Source: Leucoraja erinacea
Lineage: Eukaryota
Direction of reading: 5' to 3'
Length of the DNA: 64,000 bases
Assembly: GCF_028641065.1 (NCBI RefSeq)
Contig: NC_073399.1
Coordinates: 19,096,001 to 19,160,000 of the forward strand
Shown here: positions 5,523-61,472 of the stretch, piece after piece
Position numbering within the stretch: position 1 is the first letter of the stretch
Layout of the letters: every line of letters begins with the position of its first letter
Notes under the pieces: generated by a model
What the model was told of the DNA's origin: nothing
Seen by the model: the letters and a program-made list of their open reading frames with translations, nothing else
Databases searched by the model: none
Translations under genes and position numbers: made by a program

Positions 5523-8500
5523 TAGAAACATAGAAAATAGGTGCAGGAGTAGGCCATTCGGCCCTTCGGCCCTGCACCGCCATTCAATATGATCATGGCT
5601 GATCATCCAACTCAGTATCCCATCCCTGCCTTACCTCCATGCCCCCTGATCCCTTTAGCCACAAGGGCCACATCTAACTCCCTCTTAAATATAGCCAATG
5701 GACCGGCCTCAACTACCTTCTGTGGCAGAGAATTCCACAGATTCATCACTCTCTGTGTAAAAAATGATTTTCTCATCTCGGTCCTAAAAGACTTCCCTCT
5801 TATCCTTAAACTGTGACCCCTAGTTCTGGACTTCCCCAACATCGGGAATTATCTTCCTGCATCTAGCCTGTCCAACCCCCTTAAGAATTTTGTAAGTCTA
5901 TAAGATCCCCCTCAATCTTCTAAATTCTAGCGTGTACATGCCGAGTCCATCCAGTCTTTCTTCATATGAAAGTCATGCCATCCCAGGAATCAGTCTGGTG
6001 AACCTTCTCTGTACTCCCTCTATGGCAAGAATGTCTTTCCTCAGATTAGGAGACCAAAACTGTACGCAATACTCCAGGTGTGGTCTCACCAAGACCCTGT
6101 ACAACTGCAGTAGAACCTCCCTGCTCTTATACTAAAATCCTTTTGCTATGAATGATAACATTCCATTTGCTTTCTTCACTGCCTGCTGCACCTGCATGCC
6201 TACTTTCAATGACTGGTGTACCATGACACCCAGGTCTCGTTGCATCTCCCCTTTTCCTAATCGGCCACCATTCAGATAATAGTCTACTTTCCTGTTTTTG
6301 CCACCAAAGTGGATAACCTCACATTTATCCATATTATACTGCATCTGCCATGCATTTGCCCACTCACCCAACCTATCCAAGTCATATTGCAGCCTCCTAG
6401 CATCCTCCTCACAGCTAACACTGCCCCCCAGTTTCGTGTCATCCGCTAACTTGGAGATGTTACATTCAATTCCCTCATCCAGATCATTAATATATATTGT
6501 AAATAGCTGGGGTCCCAGCACTGAGCCTTGCGGTACCCCACTAGTCACTGCCTGCCATTCTGAAAAGGACCCGTTTACTCCTACTCTTTGCTTTCTGTCT
6601 GCCAGCCAGTTCTCTATCCACATCAATACTGAACCCCCAATACCGTGTGTTTTAAGTTTGCATACTAATCTCTTATGTGGGACCTTGTCGAAAGCCTTCT
6701 GAAAGTCCAGATACAACATATCCACTGGTTCTCCCTTATTCACTCTACTAGTTACATCCTCGAAAAATTCTATAAGATAAGTCAGACATAATTTACCTTT
6801 CATAAATCCATGCTGACTTTGTCCAATGAATTCACCCATTTTCCAAATGTGCTGCTATCCCATCTTTAATAACTGACTCCTGAATTTTCCCCAACACCGA
6901 TGTTAGACTAATTGGTCTGTAATTCCCCGTTTTCTCTCTCCCTCCCTTTTTAAAAAGTGGGGTTACATTAGTTACCCTCCAGTCCTCAGGAACTACTCCA
7001 GAATCTAAAGAGTTTTGAAAAATTATCACTAATGCATCCACTATTTCTGCGGCTACTTCCTTAAGTACTCTGGGATGCAACTTATCTGGCCCTGGGGATT
7101 TATCGCCTTTAATCCATTCAATTTACCTAACACCACTTCCCGGCTAACCTGGATTTCACTCAGTTCCTTCATCTCATTTAACCCCCGGTCCCTTGCTATT
7201 TCCGGCAGATTATTTATGTCTTCCTTAGTGAAGACAGAACCAAAGTAGTTATTCAATTGGTCTTCCATGTCCTTGTTCCCCATAATCAATTTGCCTGTTT
7301 CTGACTGCAAGGGAGCTACATTTGTTTTAACTAATCTTTTTCTCTTCACATATCTATAAAAACTTTTGCAGTCAGTTTTTATGTTCCCTGCCAGTTTTCT
7401 TTCATAATCTATTTTCCCTTTCCTAATTAAGCCTTTTGTCCTCCTCTGCTGGACTCTGAATTTCTCCCAGTCCTCTGGTAGGCTGCTTTTTCTGTCTAAT
7501 TTGTATGCTTCATCTTTTGTTTTGATACTATCCCTGATTTCCCTTGTTACCCACGGATGCACTACCTTTCCTGATTTATTATTTTGCCAAACTGGGATGA
7601 ACAATTGTTGTAGTTCATCCATGCAGTTTTTAAATGCCTTCCAATGCATATCCACTGTCAACCCTTTAAGAATCAATTGCCAGTCTATCTTGGCCAATTC
7701 ACGTCTCATTCCCTCAAAGTCACCTTTCTTTAAGTTCAGGACCCTCGTTTCTGAATTAACAATGTCACTCTCCATCCTAATGAAGAACTCAACCATATTA
7801 TGGTTACTCTTGCCCAAGGGACCACGCACAACAAGACTGCTAACTAACCCTTCCTCGTTACTCAATACCCAGTCTAGAATAGCCTGCTCTCTCGTTGGTT
7901 CCTCTACATGTTGGTTTAGAAAACTTTCCCACATACTTTCCAAGAAATCCTCTTCCTCAGCACCCTTGCCAATTTGATTCACCCAATCTCTATGTAGATT
8001 GAAGTCACCCATTATAACTGTTTAACCTTTGTTGCACGCATTTCTAATTTCCTGTTTGATGCCATCCCCAACTCCACTACTACTGTTAGGTGGCCTGTAC
8101 ACAACTTCCACTAGCGTTTTCTGCCCTTTAGTGTTTCGCAGCTCTACCCATATCGATTCCACATCCTCCAAGCTAATGTCCTTCCTTTTTATTGCGTTAA
8201 TCTCCTCTCTAACCAGCAACGCTACCCCGCCTCCTTTTCCTTTCTGTCTATCCCTTCATATTGAATATCCCTGGATGTTCAGCTCCCAGCCTTGGTCACC
8301 CTGGAGCCATGTCTCCGTGATCCCAACTATATCATATTCATTGATAACTATCTGCACATTCTACTCTACACCTTATTCAGAATGCTCCTTGCATTGAGAC
8401 ACAAAGCCTTCAGGCTTGTTTTTACAACACTCTTACCCCTTATACAATTATGTTGAAAAGTGGCCCTTTTTGATTTTTGCCTTGGATTTGTCTGCCTGCC

Positions 8501-9720
8501 ACTTTTACTTTTCACCTTGCTACCTAACCCTCATTTTACACCCCTCTGTCTCTCTGCTCTTGCACCCACCCCCTACCACATTAGTTTAAATTATCCCCGA
8601 CAGCACTAGCAAACACTCCCACAAGGACATTGGTTCCATTCCAGCCCAGGTGTAGACCGTCCTGTTTGTACTGGTCCCACCTCCCCCAGAACTGGTTCCA
8701 ATGCCCTAGAAATTTGAATCCCTCCCCCTTGCACCATTTTTAAAGCCACGTATTCATCTGCAATATCCTTCTATTTTTACTCTGAGTAGCCCGTGGCACT
8801 GGTAGTAATCCAGAGATTATTACCTTTGAGGTCCTACTTTTAAGTTTATCTCCTAACTCCCTAAATTCACCTTGTAGGACCTCATCCCTTTTTTTACCTA
8901 TATCGTTGGTGCCAATGTGCACCACGACAACTGGCTCTTCACCCTCCCCCTCCAGAATGTTCTGCAGCCGTTCAGTGACATCCCTGACCCTTGCACCAGG
9001 GAGGCAACATACCATCCTGGAGTCTTGTTTGCGGCCACAGAAACGCCTATCTATTCCCCTTACAATTGAATCCCCTATTACTATTGCCCTTCCACTCTTT
9101 TTTCTCCCCTCCTGTGCCGCAGAGACACCCATGGTGCCATGAACTTGGCTGCTGCTGCCTTCCCCTGATGAGCCATCTCCCCCAACAGTATCCAAAATGG
9201 TATACCTGTTTAGGAGGGAGATGACCGCAGGGGACTCCTGCACTACCTGCCTACTGCTACGCTGGCTAATGGCCACACATTCCCTTTCTATCCTCTTACC
9301 TTTTACCTGCGGTGTGACCAACTCGCTGTACGTGCTATTCACGACTTTCTCAGCATCGTGGATGCTCCAGTATGAATCCAACCGCAGCTCCAATCGTTCA
9401 ATGCGGTCTGCCAGGAGCTGCAGCTGTACACACTTCCTGCAAACGTAGTCACCAGGGACACCGACCATATCCCTGATCTCCCACATGTTGCAGGCTGAGC
9501 AAACCACGGGGCCAATCTCCACTGACATAGGTTACTCCCAAACTAAATCAACTCCCTCACACTATAAAAATCTTTATCCTTTAAACTGTACCTTTACTAA
9601 TAAACACTGTACCCTTAACCTGAAAGCAGAAATGCAAACCTGGGGTTGCACACAATCAGCTGCTTCCTCTGGTCCGCTTCCACCAGACCCCTTCTCTGGA
9701 AGTGTGATGGAACGTTGCAG
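5523..9720 (-). mobile_element. Near full-length CR1 LINE (ORF1 zinc finger/leucine zipper plus SGNH esterase; ORF2 APE plus RT), disrupted
   Basis: ORF1 8740-9528 (CxxC..CxxC, IGDSIVRG, HIGTND). ORF2 pieces 8219-5612 (MGDFN, YLDFQKAFDKVPH, GVPQGSVLGP, ADDTKL). (TTCTATGT)n tail. Contains frameshifts and stops. Confidence 0.95.
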
Positions 9721-47860: not shown

Positions 47861-50800
47861 ATGGCGGAGTTGCAGAGTTCGGGGCCTCTGGCCGGGAATG
47901 ACGCCAACTCTCCCGGACTCGGCGAGAAATCCGGCAAAAAATGGGTGCGGCTGAACGTAGGCGGAACGTACTTCATTAGCACCAAGCAGACGCTGTGTCG
48001 CGACCCCAAATCCTTCCTGTGCCGCCTGTGCCAGGAGGACCCGGACCTGGACTCGGACAAGGTAAGGCGGCAGCTGCTCCCACAAGTCGCCATGGACATT
48101 CGCCAGCCCGCCCGTCGCCGCCTTGGCCAATAATTCTGCCTGCCTCCATGGAAACGAATCATCTCACTTCTCCCCCGCCCCATGGCGACCGGCCCGTTAT
48201 CTCCATGGTCACCAAGCGGGTCCCACTCGTCTCCATAACAGTTACCTGTCAGTTTGCACGATGACCGATAATCCCACCCACCTGCACAGTGATTAATAAT
48301 CGACCACTTCTCGCTAATAAATAATCCCATCCATCTCCATGCTGAGCAGTGGTCCTGCTGGACTAGTTGTCATTGTGATTTGCCTTGTGATTAATTTATT
48401 TTGTTCACCTAAATCGAATTTCACTCTACCTAAATTGGTGCATGTGGCAATAAACTCACCTTTGAACCACCTTTGAACCTACAGGAGGCAGCCATCACTA
48501 ACAAGATCTCGTTATACCATTTTCCATTGTAAATGATTTTGTGCTCTGCTTTGTCTCTCTATTTTGTAGGATGAAACTGGTGCCTATCTCATAGACAGAG
48601 ACCCAAGTTACTTTGGGCCGATCCTCAACTATCTTCGACATGGAAAACTGATCATTAATAAGGACTTGGCAGAGGAGGGTGAGCACTGAATACCTGCTGA
48701 AATATAATCTGAATGTTGTTAGGGAGGTTGCCTTGAGAGTAACTCAGACACTGGACTCCTCGATAGACCTGGACACAGATTTGTTAGCTCTGTGCGGGCT
48801 AGATCAATAAGCTTACAGAAACTGAATTTTAAAAATAAGAATCCCAGTCAGGTGGAATGCGTGGGTCATTATTTTTTTTAATGATTATGAAGTTGCCTCT
48901 ACATTGGAACCTTAACAGCTCATGAAACCTCAACATACTCCGCAACCTCTAAAATACTTTTGACATGTAGTCAGTTGTATCACAGAACTGTGGAACTATG
49001 CCAAACATACATAGAACAAAATCTCACCGTCAATACTGGAAATACTCAGCAGAACAGGTAGCATCTCTTGAGGAAAAACTGTTAACATGTCAAGTTAATA
49101 TCCTTTCATCAGAAGAAGGAAAGTTATAAATCAAACAAGTTTTAAATTGCAGGATTATTTCTACCCGTCCCTGTTCTAAGTAATTTAAAACTTGTTTGAT
49201 TTCTAATCTAAAGGGTAGAGATAAAAGTAGTATCTATAGTGGTGTGCAGGCAGGGAGAGACTGAATGACACGTCACCATTGTCTGATCTGTTTGGAGATA
49301 GTGTGTATATATAGAAGGAAGTTCATCTTGACAGGGAGAGAAAAATATAGTACTGGACTTGTGAGATGTGAAGCACTGCAATTACTGGAAATCTAAACAA
49401 ATGCTAGAAATAATCACAAGGCAGCATCTGTGGAGGAAGAAAAATTAAGTTAACATGGAGGTTGATGATCTTTAACCAGAATGCTCATCAAGGATTAGAA
49501 CTGGGACTAACTGCCAAATTGATAGAAATCTTCTATTGAGGTAATGCTGAGTGGTCATTGGCATGATGTTCTAATGGATTTGGACTCTGGCCAAATGCTT
49601 CCTAACCCGTATTGTGTTTATCCAGGGGTGTTGGAGGAGGCAGAGTTCTATAATATTGCCTTACTTGTCCGATTAGTCAAAGAACGTATTCGGGACTTGG
49701 AGAACAGGACCTCACAGGTGAGCTGAACTTGACTGTTTGCTTTACTGGAAACTACTTAATAACAGTTGGTCTGCTTGTTTGAAGGGCCAGATGGGGTGGG
49801 AGATTGCAACCTGGGAGAGTCCACCCTGTTTTGACGAATGCAGTCAACCTGGCGTGCACAATCAGAAGATCAAACAGAACAAGTTGTCTTACAACTTTAG
49901 GCTGTACACGCTATACGCAAGAAGAAGAAGAAGAAGGGCCAGATTTGTCAACTCAAAATAATCTATAATCTGACAAAGCACCACCCAATACCCCATCCTC
50001 ACCATCCCTAGAAAGGAATTCTGTGTATTGATCAGCAGCATATTGCACATGTAAGACTACCCAAAATCAGAAGGAACCACCTGAACACCATGCAGGACAA
50101 AACAAACTGCACGTGTACTGCTTCACATATTCCGTCCTTCAGCACCAGCACACTGTGATGCAATGTATACTATCTGTAACCTGCATCACAGCAGCTTATC
50201 AAAACTTCCTGGACATCAGCTCCAATTTCTCTTATCTCTACCATCCTTGAGAAACATGGCAACCAATGAATGAGGATACCAACTCCAAATTCTTGTCCAA
50301 TGCACCCATCTTTTGAGTTACATGTATAACACTCTTCCTTCACAATCGGATAGTTAAAATGCTGGAACCTTATAACTAACAACATTGTAGAAAAACCATG
50401 ACAATTTGAGCTCCAGTGGTTCAAGGTGACTCAACAGCTTCTGGAAAGAATCTACAAAGGTGCAATATGAGTTGATGTTTCAGGACTGAGATCCTTCTTC
50501 AGAATCCTAAAATTATTTTTTGTAAGATCCAATGTTGAGATTGGCTGTTGGCCCAGACCAGATACCTTAGCTGCCACTTAGTGCATGGGTGGTCATCACA
50601 TCCTGTCTCATTGTAAAGATGAATTGTGTAACTTTGGCTGCTACAACAATGAAGATTAGACTAAGCATTTGTAGCTGGCTGTTTTATATCTGAATAGAAA
50701 TCACAATAGGTTTATGATGTCATTTCCACACTACAGGGTCCAGTGAAACACGTTTACCGTGTTCTACAGTGTCAGGAGGAGGAACTCACGCAAATGGTCT

Positions 50801-53734
50801 CAACAATGTCGGACGGATGGAAATTTGAGCAGGTAGCACCTCAGTTTTCAATCATAAGGATGTTCAAAGGTCAGTTTATTGTCACATGTACCAACTAAGG
50901 TACAGTGAAACTCGAATTACCATGCAGCCATACTAAAAAAAAAGCAACAAGGCACACAACTACATAAAGGTCAACATAAACATCCACCACAGCAGATTCA
51001 TCACTGTGATGGAAGGCAATAAAGTCCAATCCTCTTCCTCTTTATTCTCCTGCGGTCGGGGCAGTTGAACCATCCGCATTCGGGGCAATCGAAGCCCCCG
51101 CATCGGGGCAGGCGAAGCTCCTGCGGCTTGGAGCTCCCGAAGTTGTTCTCTAACCAGAGATTACGAGCTCCACGATGTTAGGCCGCAGTGCGGACGGAGA
51201 TACGATACGGAAAACAAATTGCATCCCCGTCAAGGTAAGAGATTAAAAAGTTTCCCCCACATCCCCCCCCCCACTAAAGAACACTAAAACATAGATTTAA
51301 CACATACTAAAAATAAAAAAAGAAGGAACATAGAAAATAGGTGCAGGAGGAGGCCATTCGGCCCTTCGAGCCAGCACCACCATTCATTGGGAGGGACAGG
51401 CAGACTGTTGGCGAGGCAGAAATTGCTGGCGCCATCCATTGTACATCAGGAGTTGAGAGAGTATGGTGAAGGTAACTAAATTAATACTAGCCATGCTTAA
51501 ACGAAGGGGATTTGAAGGATCATAGTCTTAAACAATAATAAACAGAGATAAATGCAAACCTTAACAAAGGGATAGTAATTTTGGTGTTGGAGAGGGTGAT
51601 CAGCATAAAGGCAAAATTAGCTCTTCAACAAAGAGATTGCACAATGTGTCCATTTGATTGCCATGGAGATGCTGGAAGGCAGACATTCGGCAGATTCAAG
51701 AGGTTACGAGCGTCGGAATATATTCTTGGTTTGATTTGTAAAAGAAAGATGTGGCCCTCTACACACTAGTGTAGAATGGGTCTTGATCTGCAGGTAATGT
51801 GGGGGTGGGAATAGACTGCTGGTCCACAATGTTGCTGCATGCCAGCCCATAGGCCCCCACTATCAGTATTCTCATTTACCTTTAACTAATGCTCTGAACC
51901 CAATTTGGTCCCAAGGTGGGAAAGTGCCTACAAATATAAGATTGTTACCAAGAAATCAAACAAGAAATTCAAAAGAAACTTGACAGAAAGCAATGAGAAT
52001 TGGCTCCTCACTGGATATGGCAGCAGTACAGATAATTTTAAGAAGCTAGATCAGTGGTTCCCAACGTGGGGCGTAACAGGGGGGCAATTTCAAAAGAAAC
52101 TTGCTCAGAATTTTTCTTTTTCATGGATGCATGTTCTTTTGAAGCTTGTTTAAACCAAGGTATTGGCGTTTTAAGCTTCTTCAGCTGAAATGGAGTTCAC
52201 TATTTAAATGATAAGAATTATATATCACCACATGGGGGGGGCATCAGGATTTTAGAGGTGATTAGGTGGGGCATGGCCAAAAAAAGGTTGGGAACCACTG
52301 AGCTAGATAGTGTATGTGAGACAAATAGGTAAGTGAGAGAAAGAAGGGGTCTAGATTGGAGCATAATCACCAGCCTGGATTAATCGGGTTGATGGTTTTT
52401 TTCTGTGCTAAATATATACTATGTAGGGTTATATGAAATACTTTCATTAGGGTGCATTTGTCCAAAGTACTATTGACGTGCGGGAATTGCTTGTGGAAAA
52501 ACTCCCAGCAACTGCTCCAGTGAAGGATAGCTTTATGATAAATTACCCTAGAGTATTAATTTGATCATATGCGCATGCTTGCGCATATATCGACCAGATT
52601 ATATGTGATGTTAAGTGAACATGAAAGTTGATGTCATTGCTGATATATAGTATGATTTGACATATGTTCACATGCTTGCAGATTTCACATTGTATGGATA
52701 GACATCCATTGTAACATATTGTAGAATGTGTGGCTTATGTTACACTGGAAACAGCCAGCAAAATAAACATCACATCCACTGTGAACACAACTATTTCAAT
52801 ATCTTCCTCCAGTAATGCTACATTTACAATCTCTGCCCTGCACATGCGGAATCTCAGTTGTCAATGTGAAGAGTAGATACAGTATTCATAAAAGAAAAAA
52901 ATCAAATTTCATAACAAAGTTTACCGTTTGGTGCCTTTCTAGCAATCCTGCAGCAAAAAAAAATCATAGTTTCCCAATCTGATTTGATGAAATGTTAGAT
53001 GTTTGGGGCTTTCCAACACCAGCAACCTTGGTGGACGACTTCAGACTGGTATCACAAGTGTGATTTAATGTCTCTTCTGAAAGGCACCAAGGCTTTAACC
53101 TTTTGTTCAGATAACTGGATTTTGGGATATCAAATAGAAATTCCACCTGCTGTGTATAATGATTTATACTGTTTGTAGTGAGGTGGAATTTGATTAAATT
53201 CAGGAAAACATGTAAGAAAGATTTGCGTGATTTATCTGGTGCTCTGTGCGTGTATTATTACTAATTACGTTTTGGTCCTTTACCCAGCTCATTAACATTG
53301 GATCCTCCTACAATTATGGCAGCGAAGATCAGGCTGAATTTCTCTGCGTTGTCTCCAGGGAGCTGAATAACTCAACTAATGGAATTGTCATAGAGCCCAG
53401 TGAGAAAGCCAAGGTACCACACTGTCCTTACCTTTGACTCTTGTTCTGTCTTAGCTATTTTTCATATTTACCACGAGGTGGGCTAATTTCTGATAGTCAA
53501 GTTGAGGCAGTTAGAGATATTCTTTGAATTGTCATGAGTTAGATGGGGATACAAATGTGAAGTCAGAACGACTCCAAGACAAAAGGAATATTTTGACTCT
53601 ATGTATTTAGATTCAGCAAAATAGTCCAGTCTGTTTCACCAGATGACATTTTCCTACTCAAAATCTCCTAACGATCTTGTATTCTGGCTATTTATTGGAA
53701 ACAGATTCTGCAAGAGCGAGGCTCAAGGATGTGA
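47861..53734 (+). CDS. KCTD2: BTB/POZ domain-containing protein KCTD2 (CUL3 adaptor, KCTD2/5/17 clade), 217 aa
   Basis: Exons 47861-48061 (MAELQ...[18 protein letters not shown]...DSDK), 48570-48678 ([27 protein letters not shown]), 49626-49717, 50737-50832 ([32 protein letters not shown]), 53288-53413 and 53705-53734 (ILQERGSRM*), total 654 nt, GT-AG. The MAELQ start and head-to-head link with ATP5PD identify KCTD2. Confidence 0.96.
49793..49932 (+). mobile_element. Second copy of the ribozyme-headed retroposon, in KCTD2 intron 3 (P3/L3 degenerate)
   Basis: Perfect 12-bp TSD GAAGGGCCAGAT (49781-49792 and 49933-49944), the same 5' start GGGGTGG, and an (AAG)n tail. Confidence 0.8.
50870..51435 (-). 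mobile_element. Rex1-associated non-autonomous repeat (also at ~18935-19210 and ~26340-26500)
   Basis: Shared TTTATTGTCACATG...CATCCACCACAG...CACTGTGA.GGAAGGCAATAAAG blocks across the three loci. Confidence 0.6.
52052..52300. mobile_element. hAT/Charlie-type MITE in KCTD2 intron 4
   Basis: 14-bp TIRs CAGTGGTTCCCAAC / GTTGGGAACCACTG and a perfect 8-bp TSD AGCTAGAT (52044-52051, 52301-52308). Confidence 0.92.
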
Positions 53735-54854: not shown

Positions 54855-57800
54855 CAACGTTCCAGAGAAGGGGTATGGTGGAAGCCTCTGATTGGTGGAA
54901 GAGGACCGGGTTTACATTTTTACATTTCTGCCTTCAGGTTAAGGATTCTGGGAGTTAAGGATTCTGGGAGTTAAGTGTACAGTATTTATTAGTAAAGTTT
55001 AAAGGATAAAGTTTTGTGTTTTTTAATATTTAATATAGAGTTAATTTGGGAGTAAGATATGTCAGTGGAGATTGGCCCCGTGGTTTGCTCAGCCTGCAAC
55101 ATGTGGGAGATCAGGGATATGGTCGGTGTCCCTGGTGACTACGTTTGCAGGAAGTGTGTACAGCTGCAGCTCCTGGCAGACCGCATTGAACGATTGGAAC
55201 TGCGGCTGGATTCATACTGGAGCATCCACGATGCTGAGAAAGTCGTGGATAGCACGTACAGCGAGTTGGTCACACCGCAGGTAAAAGGTAAGAGGACAGA
55301 AAGGGAACGGGTGGCCAATAGCCAGCAAAGCAGTAGGCAGGTAGTGCAGGAGTCCCCTGCGGTCATCTCCCTCCTAAACAGGTATACCATTTTGGATACT
55401 GTTGAGGGAGATGGCTCATTAGGGGAATGCAGCAGCAGCCAAGTTCATGGCACCATGGGTGGCTCTGCGGCACATGAGGGGGGGGAAAAGAGTGGAAGGG
55501 CAATAGTAATAGGGGAATCAATTGTCAGGGGAATAGATAGGCGTTTCTGCGGCCGCAAACAAGACTCCAGGATGGTATGTTGCCTCCCTGGTGCAAGGGT
55601 CAGGGATGTCATTGAACGGCTGCAGAACATTCTGGAGGGGGAGGGTGAACAGCCAGTTGTCGTGGTGCATATTGGCACCAACGATATAGGTAAAAAAAGG
55701 GATGAGGTCCTACAAGATGAATTTAGGGAGCTAGGAGATGAACTTAAAAGTAGGACCTCAAAGGTAATAATCTCTGGATTACTACCAGTACCACGGGCCA
55801 GTCAGAGTAGAAATAGGAGGTGATTGCAGATGAATACGTGGCTTGAAAAATGGTGCAAAGGGGAGGGATTCAAATTTTTAGGGCATTGAAACCAGTTCTG
55901 GGGGAGGTGGGACCAGTACCAACAGGACGGTCTGCACCTGGGCTGGAATGGAACCAATGTCCTTCGGGGAGTGTTTGCTAGTGCTGTCGTGGAGGATTTA
56001 AACTAATGTGGCAGGGGGATGGGTACAAGAGCAGAGAGGCAGGGGGGTGTAAAATGAGGGTAGAAGCAATAGGTAGCAAGGTGAAAAGTAAAAGTGGCAG
56101 GCAGACAAATCCAGGGCAAAAATCGAAAAGGGCCACTTTTCAACATAATTGTATAAGGGGTAAAAGCGTTGTAAAAACAAGCCTGAAGGCTTTGTGTCTC
56201 AATGCAAGGACTATTCGTAATAAGGTGGATGAGTTGAACGTGCAGATAGCCAATAATGATTATGATATAGTTGGGATCACGGAGACATGGCTCCAGGGTG
56301 ACCAAGGCTGGGAGCTGAACATCCAGGGATATTCAATATTCAGGAGGGATAGAGAGAAAGGAAAAGGAGGTGGGCTAGCGTTGCTGGTTAGAGAGGAGAT
56401 TAACGCAATGGAAAGGAACGACATTAGTTTGGAGGATGTGGAATCGGTATGGGTAGAGCTGCGAAACACTAAGGGGCAGAAAACGCTGATGGGTGTTGTG
56501 TACAGGCCACCTAACAGTAGTAGTGAAGTTGGAGATGGTATCAAAAAGGAAATTAGAAATGCGTGCGACAAAGGCAAAACAGTTATAATGGGTGACTTCA
56601 ATCTACATATAGATTGGGTGAATCAAATTGGCAGGGGTGCTGAGGAAGAGGATTTCTTGGAATGTATGCGGGATAGTTATCTAAATCAACATGTAGAGGA
56701 ACCAACGAGAGAGCAGGCTATTTTAGACTGGGTATTGAGTAATGAGGAAGGGTTAGTTAGCAGTCTTGTTGTACGTGCCCCCTTGGGCAAGAGGGACCAT
56801 AATATGGTTGAGTTCTTCATTAGGATGGAGAGTGACATTGTTAATTCAGAAACAATGGTTCTGAACTTAAAGAAAGGTAATTTTGAGGGTATGAGACGTG
56901 AATTGGCCAAGATTGATTGGCAATTAATTCTAAAAGGGTTGACGGTGGATATACAATGGAAGACATTTAAAGACCGCATGGATGAACTACAAAAATTGTT
57001 CATCCCAGTGGCAAAAGAATAAATCAGGAAAGGTAGTGCATCCGTGGGTAACAAGGGAAAAGGGCTAGTTCAAAGCGAAAAATAGATTATGAAAAAAAAC
57101 TGGCAAGGAACATACCAGAGGACTGCAAAGGTTTTTATAGATATGTGAGGACAAAAAGAGATTAGTTAAAAAAAAATGTAGGTCCCTGGCAGTCAGAAAA
57201 CAGACTGCAAAGGTTGATATCATGGGAAACAAGGATATGGCGGACCAATTTAATAACTACTTTGGTTCCGTCTTCACTAAGGAAGACATAAATAATTTGC
57301 CGGTAATAGCAGGGGACCGCGGGTCAAAGGAGTTGGAGGAATTGAGTGAAATCCAGGTTAGCTGGGAAGTGGCGTCGGGTAAATTGAATGGATTAAAAGA
57401 TGATAAATCCTGAGTGCCAGATAGTCTGCATCCCAGAGTACTTAAGGAAGTATCTCCAGAAATAGTGGATGCATTAGTAATAATCTTTCAAAACTCTTTA
57501 GATTCTGGAGTAGTTCCTGAGGATTGGCAGGTAGGAAACATAACCCCACTTTTTAAGAAGGGAGGGAGAGAGAGAAAACAGGGAATTACAGACCAGTTAG
57601 TCTAACATCGGTAGTGGGGAAACTGCTAGAGTCAGTTATTAAAGATGGGATAGCAGCACATTTGGAAAGTGGTGAAATCATTGGACAAAGTCAGCATGGA
57701 TTTACGAAAGGTAAATCATGTCTGACAAATCTTATAGAATTTTTCGAGGATGTAACTAGTAGCGTGGCTAGGGGAGAACCAGTGGATGTGGTGTATCTAG

Positions 57801-58971
57801 ACTTCCAGAAGGCTTTCGACAAGGTCCCACATAAAAGATTAGTATACAAACTTAAAGCACATGGCATTGGGGGTTCAGTATTGATGTGGATAGAGAACTG
57901 GCTGGCAAACAGGAAGCAAAGAGTAGTAGTAAACGGGTCCTTTTCACAATGGCGGGCAGTGACTCAGTGGGGTACCGAAAGACTTAATATACAATATATA
58001 TTAATGATCTGGATGAGGGAATTGAAGGCAATATCTCCAAGTTTGCGGAGGACACTAAGCTGGGGGGCAGTGTTAGCTGTGAGGAGGATGCTAGGAGACT
58101 GCAAGGTGACTTGGATAGGCTGGGTGAGTGGGCAAATGTTTGGCAGATGCAGTATAATGTGGATAAATGTGAGGTTATCCATTTTGGTGGCAAAAACAGG
58201 AAAGCAGACTTATCTAAATGGTGGCCGATTAGGAAAAGGGGAGATGCAGCGAGACCTGGGTGTCATGATACACCAGTCATTGAAAGTAGGCATGCAGGTG
58301 CAGAAGGCAGTGAAGAAAGCGAATGGTATGTTAGCTTTCATAGCAAAAGGATTTGAGTATAGGAACAGTGAGGTTCTACTGCAGTTGTACAAGGTCTTGG
58401 TGAGACCACACCTGGAGTATTGCGTACAGTTTTGGTCTCCAAATCTGAGGAAGACATTATTGCCATAGAGGGAGTGCAGAGAAGGTTCACCAGACTGATT
58501 CCTGGGATGTCAGGACTGTCTTATGAAGAAAGACTGGATAGACTTGGTTTATACTCTCTAGAATTTAGGAGATTGAGAGGGGATCTTATAGAAACTTACA
58601 AAATTCTTAAGGGGTTGGACAGGCTAGATACAGGAAGATTGTTCCCGATGTTGGGGAAGTCCAGGACAAGGGGTCACAGCTTAAGGATAAGGGGGAAATC
58701 CTTTAAAACCGAGATGAGAAAAACTTTTTTCACACAGAGAGTGGTGAATCTCTGCAACTCTCTGCCACAAAGGGTAGTTGAGGCCAGTTCATTGGCTATA
58801 TTTAAGAGGGAGTTAGATGTGGCCCTTGTGGCTAAGGGGATCAGAGGGTATGGAGAAATGGCAGGTACGGGATACTGAGTTGGATGATCAGCCATGATCA
58901 TATTGAATGGCGGTGCAGGCTCGAAGGGCCGAATGGCCTACTCCTGCACCTAATTTCTGTTTCTGTTTCTA
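54855..58971 (+). mobile_element. Near full-length CR1 LINE, same family as 5523-9720, disrupted
   Basis: ORF1 55059-55823 is nearly identical to 8740-9528. ORF2 pieces span 56006-58878. The 5' UTR is homologous to copy 1. The 3' tail is present. Confidence 0.95.
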
Positions 58972-59545: not shown

Positions 59546-59915
59546 GTGATTTCTTTCAGTCAATCTCCAGCTTGTCAAAATAGCTGTCAAGTAAACTTGT
59601 TCCATTGAAATGGCTCCCTACCAAAGTTTGCGACACAATGGTGTTCAGTCAGGGAGTATTTCCAAGCTTCTCCAACATTGGCTCTGGATATAGTGCTGCC
59701 TCTTTACAGCAGGTCAAACATAGAAATCAGAGGATTGCCCACCCACTGGCTTCCTTCAGATGATGAATCAATGCATCCCATGTTGAATATTCTTTGTAGC
59801 GGTAGTGGGTGCAGAAAATTCAATGTTCATCACAAAGAATAGCTTGATAAGATTATTACCAAAATGGTTGAGTTTTGAAACATGGTCAACAGCATATGCA
59901 TCTGTTGTGCAAAAA

Positions 59916-60036
59916 TCTTCTTCTTGCGTATAGCATGCACAGCCAAAAAGTTGTAGGACAACTTGTTCTATTTGATTTGGTTGATTGCATTCGCCGAAAC
60001 AGGGTGGACCATGTGACGGTTGCAATCTTCCACCCC
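59916..60036 (-). mobile_element. Short non-autonomous retroposon: HDV-like ribozyme head, stem-loop and (AAG)n tail (intact copy)
   Basis: Starts GGGGTGG and ends TACGCAAGAAGAAGA. Flanked by an imperfect TSD (ttgtgcaa core). Homologous to 49793-49932. Confidence 0.75.
59983..60036 (-). ncRNA. Predicted minimal HDV/CPEB3-like self-cleaving ribozyme
   Basis: P1 GGGGUGG/CCACCCU (G1-U wobble), P2 GAUUGCA/UGCAAUC, P3 ACC/GGU, 7-nt L3 GUCACAU, J1/4 GU, vestigial P4 UUCGG, and J4/2 CGAA with the catalytic-position C. Confidence 0.7.
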
Positions 60037-61472
60037 TTGTGCAACGATGAGTGAAAGTAATACCACCCATTCTTTGTGGAGACAACCAAGGGCACCTCCA
60101 TTGTGTTGTGTGGCACCTTCCAAATATCAAAAGGGATATACAAAATGAACTTGCAGTTCAAAATAGGATACCTAGGACGTTCCTTCACTCATCAACAGAA
60201 ATGCAAGCCACTTCAAAGTATAATTTAGTAATTATTATCAAGAAAGAAAGCCTGGTTCAATGAGTTGTGCGGAAAGCTCTATTGAGAATAGGTTCATTAA
60301 ACATGGGGAAGTTACAACATAGATCTACATTTTTTCACACATCGGGTGATGGGTGAATGGAATGAGCTGCCAGAGGAGGTAGTTGATGCAAGGAATAGGT
60401 TCCAAAAGCAGATAAACATGGGACCTGTTTCCAATGACTCTATTTGGGTACAGAAGTTACAACATAGATCAATTAAACTATGGGAGGAGGAAGCAGCACC
60501 AAGAACATCACATTTTTTATCCACACATCGGGTGATGGGTGAATGGAATGAGCTGCCAGAGGAGGTAGTTGATGCAAGGACTATGCAATGTTTAAGAAAA
60601 AGTTAGACAGGTGCATGGATAGACAGGTTTGGAGGGATATGGGCCAAAAGCAGATAGGTGGGAATAGTGTAGCTGGGACATGTTGGCCGGTGGGGGCAAG
60701 TTGGGCCAAATGACCTGTTTCCACATTGTATGACTCTATTTGGGTACAGAAATGAAAATGACAGGTGATACAGCTAAATTTTCCTCAAAGGATCAGGAAT
60801 CTGAAAGCCTGCTACTTCCACTTATGAAAGATGGTGGGCAATTAAACTATGGGAGGAGGAAGCAGCACCAAGAACATCACCATCTGCAACAATGGGACAG
60901 GTCAGTATTATTGATAAAGACAAACCTGGTGTTTCAACCATCTTCTGCCAGAAAAATGCACAAAGCAACTAAGATCAATTTTATCAAATTGCGTTTGTCT
61001 TTGCATTGATCAATTACACATTACATTGCTGAACTTGGCTCAATTATCTGTCCTTTCTCTTTCCTTAAGATTGCCTGTGATTAAGCAAAGAACAAGGGAC
61101 TAGATCTGGGATCTCCTGGTTTAATATTTTCAGTGCAATTCAAAGTAGTCTTATAACCAGGTGATGATGAAGCCTCTGTATTGTGTGAGCATACGTGGAG
61201 ATGGTTTGTGTGTTGAATGAAACAAACCTAGCTCCTATGTTAACATAATACTCATAATTGATTTATTCAGTGTACAATGTAGAAACACATAGTTAATTTA
61301 GTGTAATCTTTTAAGGCGCACTTCACTATCTGCATTTTGGACCATTGCTCCTGTTTTTAGTCTAATTGGCCAGTCCAGATGCCAGACCGCACATCGTGCC
61401 TGGTTGCAGTTAGTTCCCTGGAGCAGGATTTATAGCCACTATATACTGGCAAAGTTCAGCTCATTGCCACGC

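Follow-up and report, generated by a model that had tools for sequence, protein, structure and literature searches.

The 121-nt element at positions 59,916–60,036 (minus strand) of the window, by which we mean the whole 64,000-nt stretch of skate DNA analysed here, is in our reading a decayed non-autonomous retroposon, put together from the first 80–97 and the last ~40 bases of a LINE of Vingi type in the same genome. Its source copies likely used a predicted HDV-like ribozyme to release their own 5′ end and likely relied on the protein of the LINE for copying into new sites, and we give this reading as a whole a probability of roughly 85%. With less confidence, we also lean towards a broader proposal, in which CPEB3-like, predicted self-cleaving heads are standard in Vingi elements and spawned three families of mini-retroposons (two P4-less, looped by a 5′–3′ helix), the mammalian CPEB3 ribozyme being a domesticated ancient Vingi 5′ end. 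The weight of the finding lies in this link between Vingi and CPEB3 and in the presence of three parallel families within one vertebrate genome.

The window element and its family

Read from 60036, the minus strand agrees with the original prediction in its letters, coordinates, helices, L3 and joiners. The first 54 nt (59983–60036, minus strand), which correspond to the 5′ end of a LINE that we call LINE-B, are predicted to adopt a minimal, P4-less HDV-like ribozyme fold with all seven base pairs of P1 (G1–U36 among them), a 2-nt J1/2, all seven pairs of P2, all three pairs of P3, a 7-nt L3, GU as J1/4, a 5-nt linker replacing P4 and CGAA as J4/2. When both strands of the window were scanned with a loose HDV descriptor, this element gave the single match with a P1 of 7 and a P2 of at least 7 bp, and no such match was found in 10 dinucleotide shuffles. 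Rfam scans of the window and of both copies of the element within it returned no ribozyme match.

The head is followed by a middle part (59958–59982, minus strand), made of a remnant of the LINE-B 5′UTR and a short duplication, from which a 10-nt arm that in most copies pairs with the 3′UTR has been lost in this copy. The element then ends in the 3′ end of LINE-B (59916–59957, minus strand), comprising the last codons and stop, a ~17-nt 3′UTR and an (AAG)n tail. A 7-bp hairpin (59948–59964, minus strand) lies across the junction; it is found in subfamilies A and B and is missing from LINE-B and from subfamily D. The copy is flanked by its own 8-bp target-site duplication (TSD), the 5′ side of which (60037–60044) adjoins G1, with the 3′ side at 59905–59912.

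The window copy differs from the reference copy of its family by the changes U20G, G25A, G8A and A43G and by the loss of ~17 nt from the middle. The first two of these changes remove the U20–G25 pair of L3, which is described as crucial in HDV-like ribozymes in the accessible text of 10.1101/2022.09.22.508989, and the copy fails our core test; C44, the catalytic-type residue, is retained. In the window copy the predicted ribozyme has probably lost its catalytic activity, and the copy, which had been proposed as a cleavage substrate, is a poor choice because the U20–G25 pair is lost.

At the level of the family the pair is present. Among 58 heads picked by their tail alone, U20 was found in 57, G25 in 50 and C44 in 54, and L3 was mostly UUCACGU. 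Variants were frequent at CpG sites as well as at nt 8, 32 and 45, and those at the three numbered positions, the common non-CpG ones, fall in joiners or at a U–A/U–G pair. The core test was passed by 27 and failed by 26 of 53 tail-selected heads. C44T was found in none of 53 targeted copies, against 13 of 53 for G45A, which is unlike the behaviour of most other CpG sites, and C44T was present in two copies met incidentally; this pattern suggests that there may have been several source copies under selection.

The family to which the window element belongs (family 1, with a unit of 130–140 nt) yielded at least 1,612 candidates in a search of the genome, 40 of which were scored. A further 20 pieces, representing ~8–10 independent copies, were met incidentally in ~673 kb of flanks, which suggests that there are ~10^4 copies, an estimate that comes from repeat flanks and thus from a non-random sample. 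Family 1 was also found in contigs of four other organisms, with the same 5′ boundary and junction. TSDs of 8–18 bp flank 92 of the 122 copies that are full-length, and a control with swapped flanks yielded 2 of 122; the 5′ ends, whose uniformity had been put forward as a check of the original prediction, lie at most 1 nt from G1 in 79 of the 92 copies with a TSD. The base at position −1 was T in 68 of the 122 copies, which may reflect either a preferred target or the addition of a base. The foot of the hairpin looked like a hot spot of 5′ truncation, a reading that was dropped because the search pattern itself selects for that end.

Origin from a Vingi-type LINE

When a LINE with the middle of the element was sought in four pattern searches, they returned just subfamily variants and 5′-truncated or interrupted copies of it, and no long P4 common to different loci. 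Patterns that left out the element's own sequence led to a second (AAG)n family, from there to a LINE that we call LINE-A, and then to two loci ending in the 3′ sequence of another LINE, LINE-B. LINE-A has a 3′ end unlike that of family 1 and was discarded as its partner for this reason; the second family descends from it. On several contigs (L200, L204, L205, L207, L208, L210), 5′ halves of LINE-A also stand in tandem as segmentally duplicated units.

LINE-B is a decayed LINE of ~3 kb in the same genome, with APE and RT and no RNase H. The family-1 tail, from last codons and stop through the ~17-nt 3′UTR to (AAG)n, terminates 27 of 30 LINE-B loci. A search with the start of the LINE-B endonuclease gave 29 candidates, for 19 of which upstream DNA was taken, and in 11 of these stretches a family-1 head, partial or whole, was colinear with the LINE-B ORF, standing ~180 nt upstream of the first motif. 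One copy of ~2.8 kb carries the head, remains of the ORF, the tail and an 11-bp TSD. In subfamily D the LINE-B 5′UTR runs straight into the LINE-B 3′ end, a layout to which subfamilies A and B add a short duplication and the hairpin.

Because head and tail both come from LINE-B, we regard the element as an internally deleted, bipartite LINE. The original prediction had postulated an (AAG)n-tailed partner of Vingi/RTE-like type, and a Vingi-type LINE sharing both the head and the 3′ end now fills that place; the accompanying idea that a ribozyme had been fused to a foreign LINE-type tail has to give way to an internal deletion within a single LINE. The predicted hairpin and (AAG)n tail are both present, but the hairpin is not a structure of the LINE tail, as only the 3′ arm of the AAGUUGU stem is LINE sequence (last codons) and the 5′ arm has no counterpart in LINE-B or subfamily D.

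LINE-B is classed as Vingi-type by an indirect route, and the label should be taken as provisional. It aligns along APE+RT proteins of ~1000 aa without an insertion the size of RNase H, and the accessible text of PMC13708176 describes Vingi elements as having a compact single ORF with APE and RT and no RNase H. In a tree of RT sequences, the rows of which include no named Vingi protein and no RTE reference, LINE-A, LINE-B and L328, a LINE from a metagenome, group together in a starred clade (99/99) that excludes CR1, L2 and the rows bearing RNase H. The label would then follow from the anatomy of LINE-B and from the head of a member of its clade, which matches that of Vingi-2_Gav (see below).

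The LINE-B copies have a mean pairwise identity of 86%, and no open ORF was found among those seen. With the window copy probably dead and every LINE-B ORF that was seen disrupted, family 1 is probably no longer mobile. In four of 10 long LINE-B copies the head is inverted at the 5′ boundary, inside the TSD, and 5′ inversions account for seven of the 19 upstream stretches, an arrangement that would fit twin priming on an RNA that starts at the head and is kept near the target. LINE-B 5′ inversions were noted at L274, L276, L280, L281, L287, L292, L293, L297, L299, L301 and L302; the inverted piece often ends in or near the ribozyme head, and the same layout is seen in the metagenome locus L342.

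Conservation of the fold and route of mobilisation

Two further families with (AAG)n tails were found. Family 2 (L143–L213; ~310 nt, 784 candidates) occurs in many internal-deletion lengths, and its head, common to LINE-A, in which Pfam recognises APE and RT, is HDV-like with different P1 and P2 sequences and a full P4; both C44T and G45A changes occur in this family. Family 3 (L157:852-1016 on the minus strand, L385–L404; ~160 nt, 1,332 candidates, 20 of which were fetched) has TSDs and a head with a 6-bp P1 and the P3 and L3 of CPEB3, without P4.

Covariation was read between lineages, because copies decay after insertion, using an alignment of seven heads from five related lineages in which three of the seven rows are family 1 and two metagenome heads are included. 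Base pairs were formed in 99.2% of 118 cells, and 12 of the 17 pairs were altered on both sides; none of 500 shuffles attained this score, and slid structures paired at 38–50%. The helices are thus compensated across families, which upholds the HDV-family fold that had been claimed and the covariation by which it was to be checked. The G1–U wobble is GU in all six rows with letters, and C44, A46 and A47 (C first in J4/2, followed by N-A-A) are invariant in all seven heads.

A covariance model built from this alignment and run on 80 metagenome loci (393 kb) found eight heads at E ≤ 0.01, of which two were training sequences, one was a near-duplicate of a training sequence and five were new. Seven of the eight, the five new ones among them, stand in sense directly upstream of a Vingi-type ORF and one is inverted at a LINE boundary, and the model found no head elsewhere in the 393 kb. 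Counting the metagenome loci that reach the N-terminal region with upstream DNA, a head was found in 7 of 16. A strict descriptor gave heads in 3 of the 80 loci, together with two doubtful antisense matches.

In all three families a segment whose first base lies 4–11 nt after P2 is complementary to the 3′UTR, and its sequence is different in each. Out of 1000 shuffles, none matched the 10-bp helix of one family, eight matched the 8-bp helix of another and none matched that of the third, which is up to 12 bp long; the 10-nt arm is present in 39 of 41 heads examined. Two metagenome LINEs have weaker 5′–3′ complementarity (24 and 9 of 1000 shuffles), and in the sole full-length LINE-B copy, the arm of which has decayed, the helix is not significant (632 of 1000 shuffles).

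The route that we propose would begin with the internal deletion of LINE-B, the step that the sequences themselves establish. Source copies would then be transcribed within longer host pol II transcripts and, as predicted from the fold, the covariation and the insertion boundaries, would cleave themselves just 5′ of G1. The observed 10-bp complementarity between the 5′UTR remnant and the 3′UTR could form a helix holding both ends near the protein, and the joined ends would be bound by the LINE-B protein, a mobilisation in trans to which the shared ends point. With the (AAG)n tail as its starting point, target-primed reverse transcription, presumably by the enzyme of the LINE, would leave the TSDs of 8–18 bp that are observed.

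The transcription step of this route has a rival reading. The head could be an internal pol II promoter as well as a ribozyme, like Pr77 of L1Tc/NARTc, in which case the element would make its own transcripts and need no read-through. We hold this to be a possible, if rather less likely, account. Pr77, the 77-nt head of L1Tc/NARTc in the sister clade, is reported in the accessible text of PMC4035085 to be both promoter and HDV-like ribozyme, whereas in the accessible text of PMC6765202 the RTE and Baggins elements that carry such ribozymes are said to have no promoter of their own. Kojima 2018 expects pol II transcription of bipartite LINEs from their 5′ extreme regions, and the high copy number attained by family 1 would also suit a promoter in the head. 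The element had been called promoter-less, and no pol III box was indeed found, but this need not mean that it lacks a promoter, the comparable Pr77 head being ribozyme and promoter at once.

It is considerably less probable that the fold, though real and inherited, no longer cleaves in its P4-less form and serves instead as a protective or protein-binding 5′ module while the 5′ ends are set otherwise. P4-less ribozymes are active in vitro, according to the accessible text of PMC10879173, and P4-less heads occur in two separate families of the skate genome; against these points, family-1 heads gave no match to the Rfam HDV-family models and did not attain E ≤ 1 on RF00622. The stretch G37-U38-UUCG-A43-C44 could, judging by its letters, fold as a competing hairpin that hides C44, and R2 heads are credited with roles besides cleavage in the accessible portions of the literature. 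Nevertheless, C44 and the following AA do not vary in the aligned heads, and C44T is absent from the targeted copies in which G45A is common, although two incidental copies carry it.

The alternatives of an ordinary pol III SINE and of a fold arisen by chance, which the short length, TSDs and simple-repeat tail might have suggested, can be dismissed as extremely improbable because the head is LINE-B's own 5′ end and the helices covary across heads, and in addition Rfam finds no tRNA, 5S or 7SL match in the element, the family-1 copy L012 has no A box and there is no credible A/B pair.

Known relatives, the CPEB3 ribozyme and genomic surroundings

The element, taken as an internally deleted Vingi-type LINE whose source copies freed their own 5′ end, is a bipartite non-autonomous LINE, a kind already known from NARTc, RIME and the R2 SIDEs, and not a pol III SINE. 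The comparisons that follow hold for these relatives as the accessible parts of the cited papers describe them. NARTc and RIME (PMC4035085) are internally deleted L1Tc/ingi derivatives headed by the HDV-like ribozyme Pr77; like family 1 they are short, non-coding and dispersed, and are built from both ends of an APE-type LINE belonging to the Ingi/Vingi group, with an HDV-like fold at nt 1. In contrast to them, family 1 has an animal host, a Vingi-type parent without RNase H, a 54-nt P4-less head and an (AAG)n tail. With the R2 SIDEs (PMC3414825, PMC6765202) it shares an internal deletion that retains ribozyme and 3′UTR and, as we infer, the use of parent protein in trans, whereas it is not rDNA-specific, has TSDs of 8–18 bp, relies on APE rather than on a restriction-like endonuclease and has far more copies. 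Bipartite non-autonomous Vingi elements (Vingi-1_EE derivatives, PMC5786205) have the same architecture and most likely belong to the same clade. The P4-less nested double pseudoknot, with the catalytic C first in J4/2, is that of the minimal HDV-like or theta ribozymes (PMC10879173), which come from metagenomes and gut phages, whereas here it stands at the head of an animal retroposon.

The searched literature contains no report of family 1 or of a Vingi ribozyme, and no paper that brings Vingi and CPEB3 together turned up in it; Repbase, Dfam, patents, Webb 2009, Ruminski 2011 and Kojima 2011 are outside its scope. The original prediction had supposed the family to be undescribed in cartilaginous fish, and searches of this literature (shark/elasmobranch; Vingi with ribozyme) likewise gave no report. 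Within the same literature, the predicted Vingi ribozymes, the putative P4-less ribozyme on an animal retroelement, the candidate helix between 5′UTR and 3′UTR and the CPEB3-like Vingi heads would be new. A massively amplified unit of 130–140 nt would represent a natural minimal set of cis-signals, made of ribozyme, 5′–3′ helix and short 3′UTR, in a clade that is employed in gene-insertion platforms, according to the accessible parts of the sources.

Family 1 is like the mammalian CPEB3 ribozyme (RF00622) in its L3 (UUCACGU), J1/4 (GU) and J4/2 (CGAA), and the P3 and L3 of family 3 are identical to those of CPEB3. The mammalian ribozyme differs from family 1 in that it has a P4 and exists as one conserved copy in an intron, and the P1, P2 and P3 sequences of family 1 are other than its own. 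On RF00622, for which the cut-off is 35 bits, family 3 scored 21–31 bits and the head of the metagenome Vingi-type LINE L328 (L328:2199-2271; also L329:3586-3658) scored 55.6 bits (E 7e-13). This head shares 35 of its first 37 nt with mammalian CPEB3, as well as 10 of its last 11, and by eye it matches the 5′ end of Vingi-2_Gav at 34 of 36 nt; the Vingi-2_Gav 5′ end itself, given in the supplement of PMC5786205, agrees with the CPEB3 consensus, also by eye, at 38 of 40 nt and at 14 of 14 nt. CPEB3 is not mentioned in the main text of that paper. The identity between L328 and CPEB3 spans helices that vary freely among the other heads, and descent is therefore favoured over convergence. Vingi heads near-identical to the CPEB3 ribozyme likely indicate where that ribozyme came from, as far as sequence comparison can tell.

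A vertebrate genome would harbour thousands of scattered RNAs that are predicted to cleave themselves, the core being intact in about half of them, a point absent from the searched papers, and such scatter makes host selection on intronic ribozymes testable through orientation bias. The second copy in the window (49793–49932, plus strand), which starts at 49793 and has a 12-bp TSD (49781–49792 and 49933–49944), both as previously claimed, lies in sense in intron 3 of a KCTD2-like gene, 76 nt from the splice donor, and its catalytic loop is wrecked, L3 and P3 having been destroyed; this is a single case. The gene has six coding exons (47861–53731, plus strand), the first of which is 87% identical to a ray protein, the closest named match by identity, as would suit a cartilaginous fish, and the window copy of the element lies 6.2 kb beyond its last codon, on the opposite strand. 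The gene is flanked by two inverted, ~4-kb copies of a CR1-like LINE (5524–9619 and 54970–58964), 89–92% identical to each other; both carry a GDSL-esterase ORF1, and the CR1 label was assigned by inspection.
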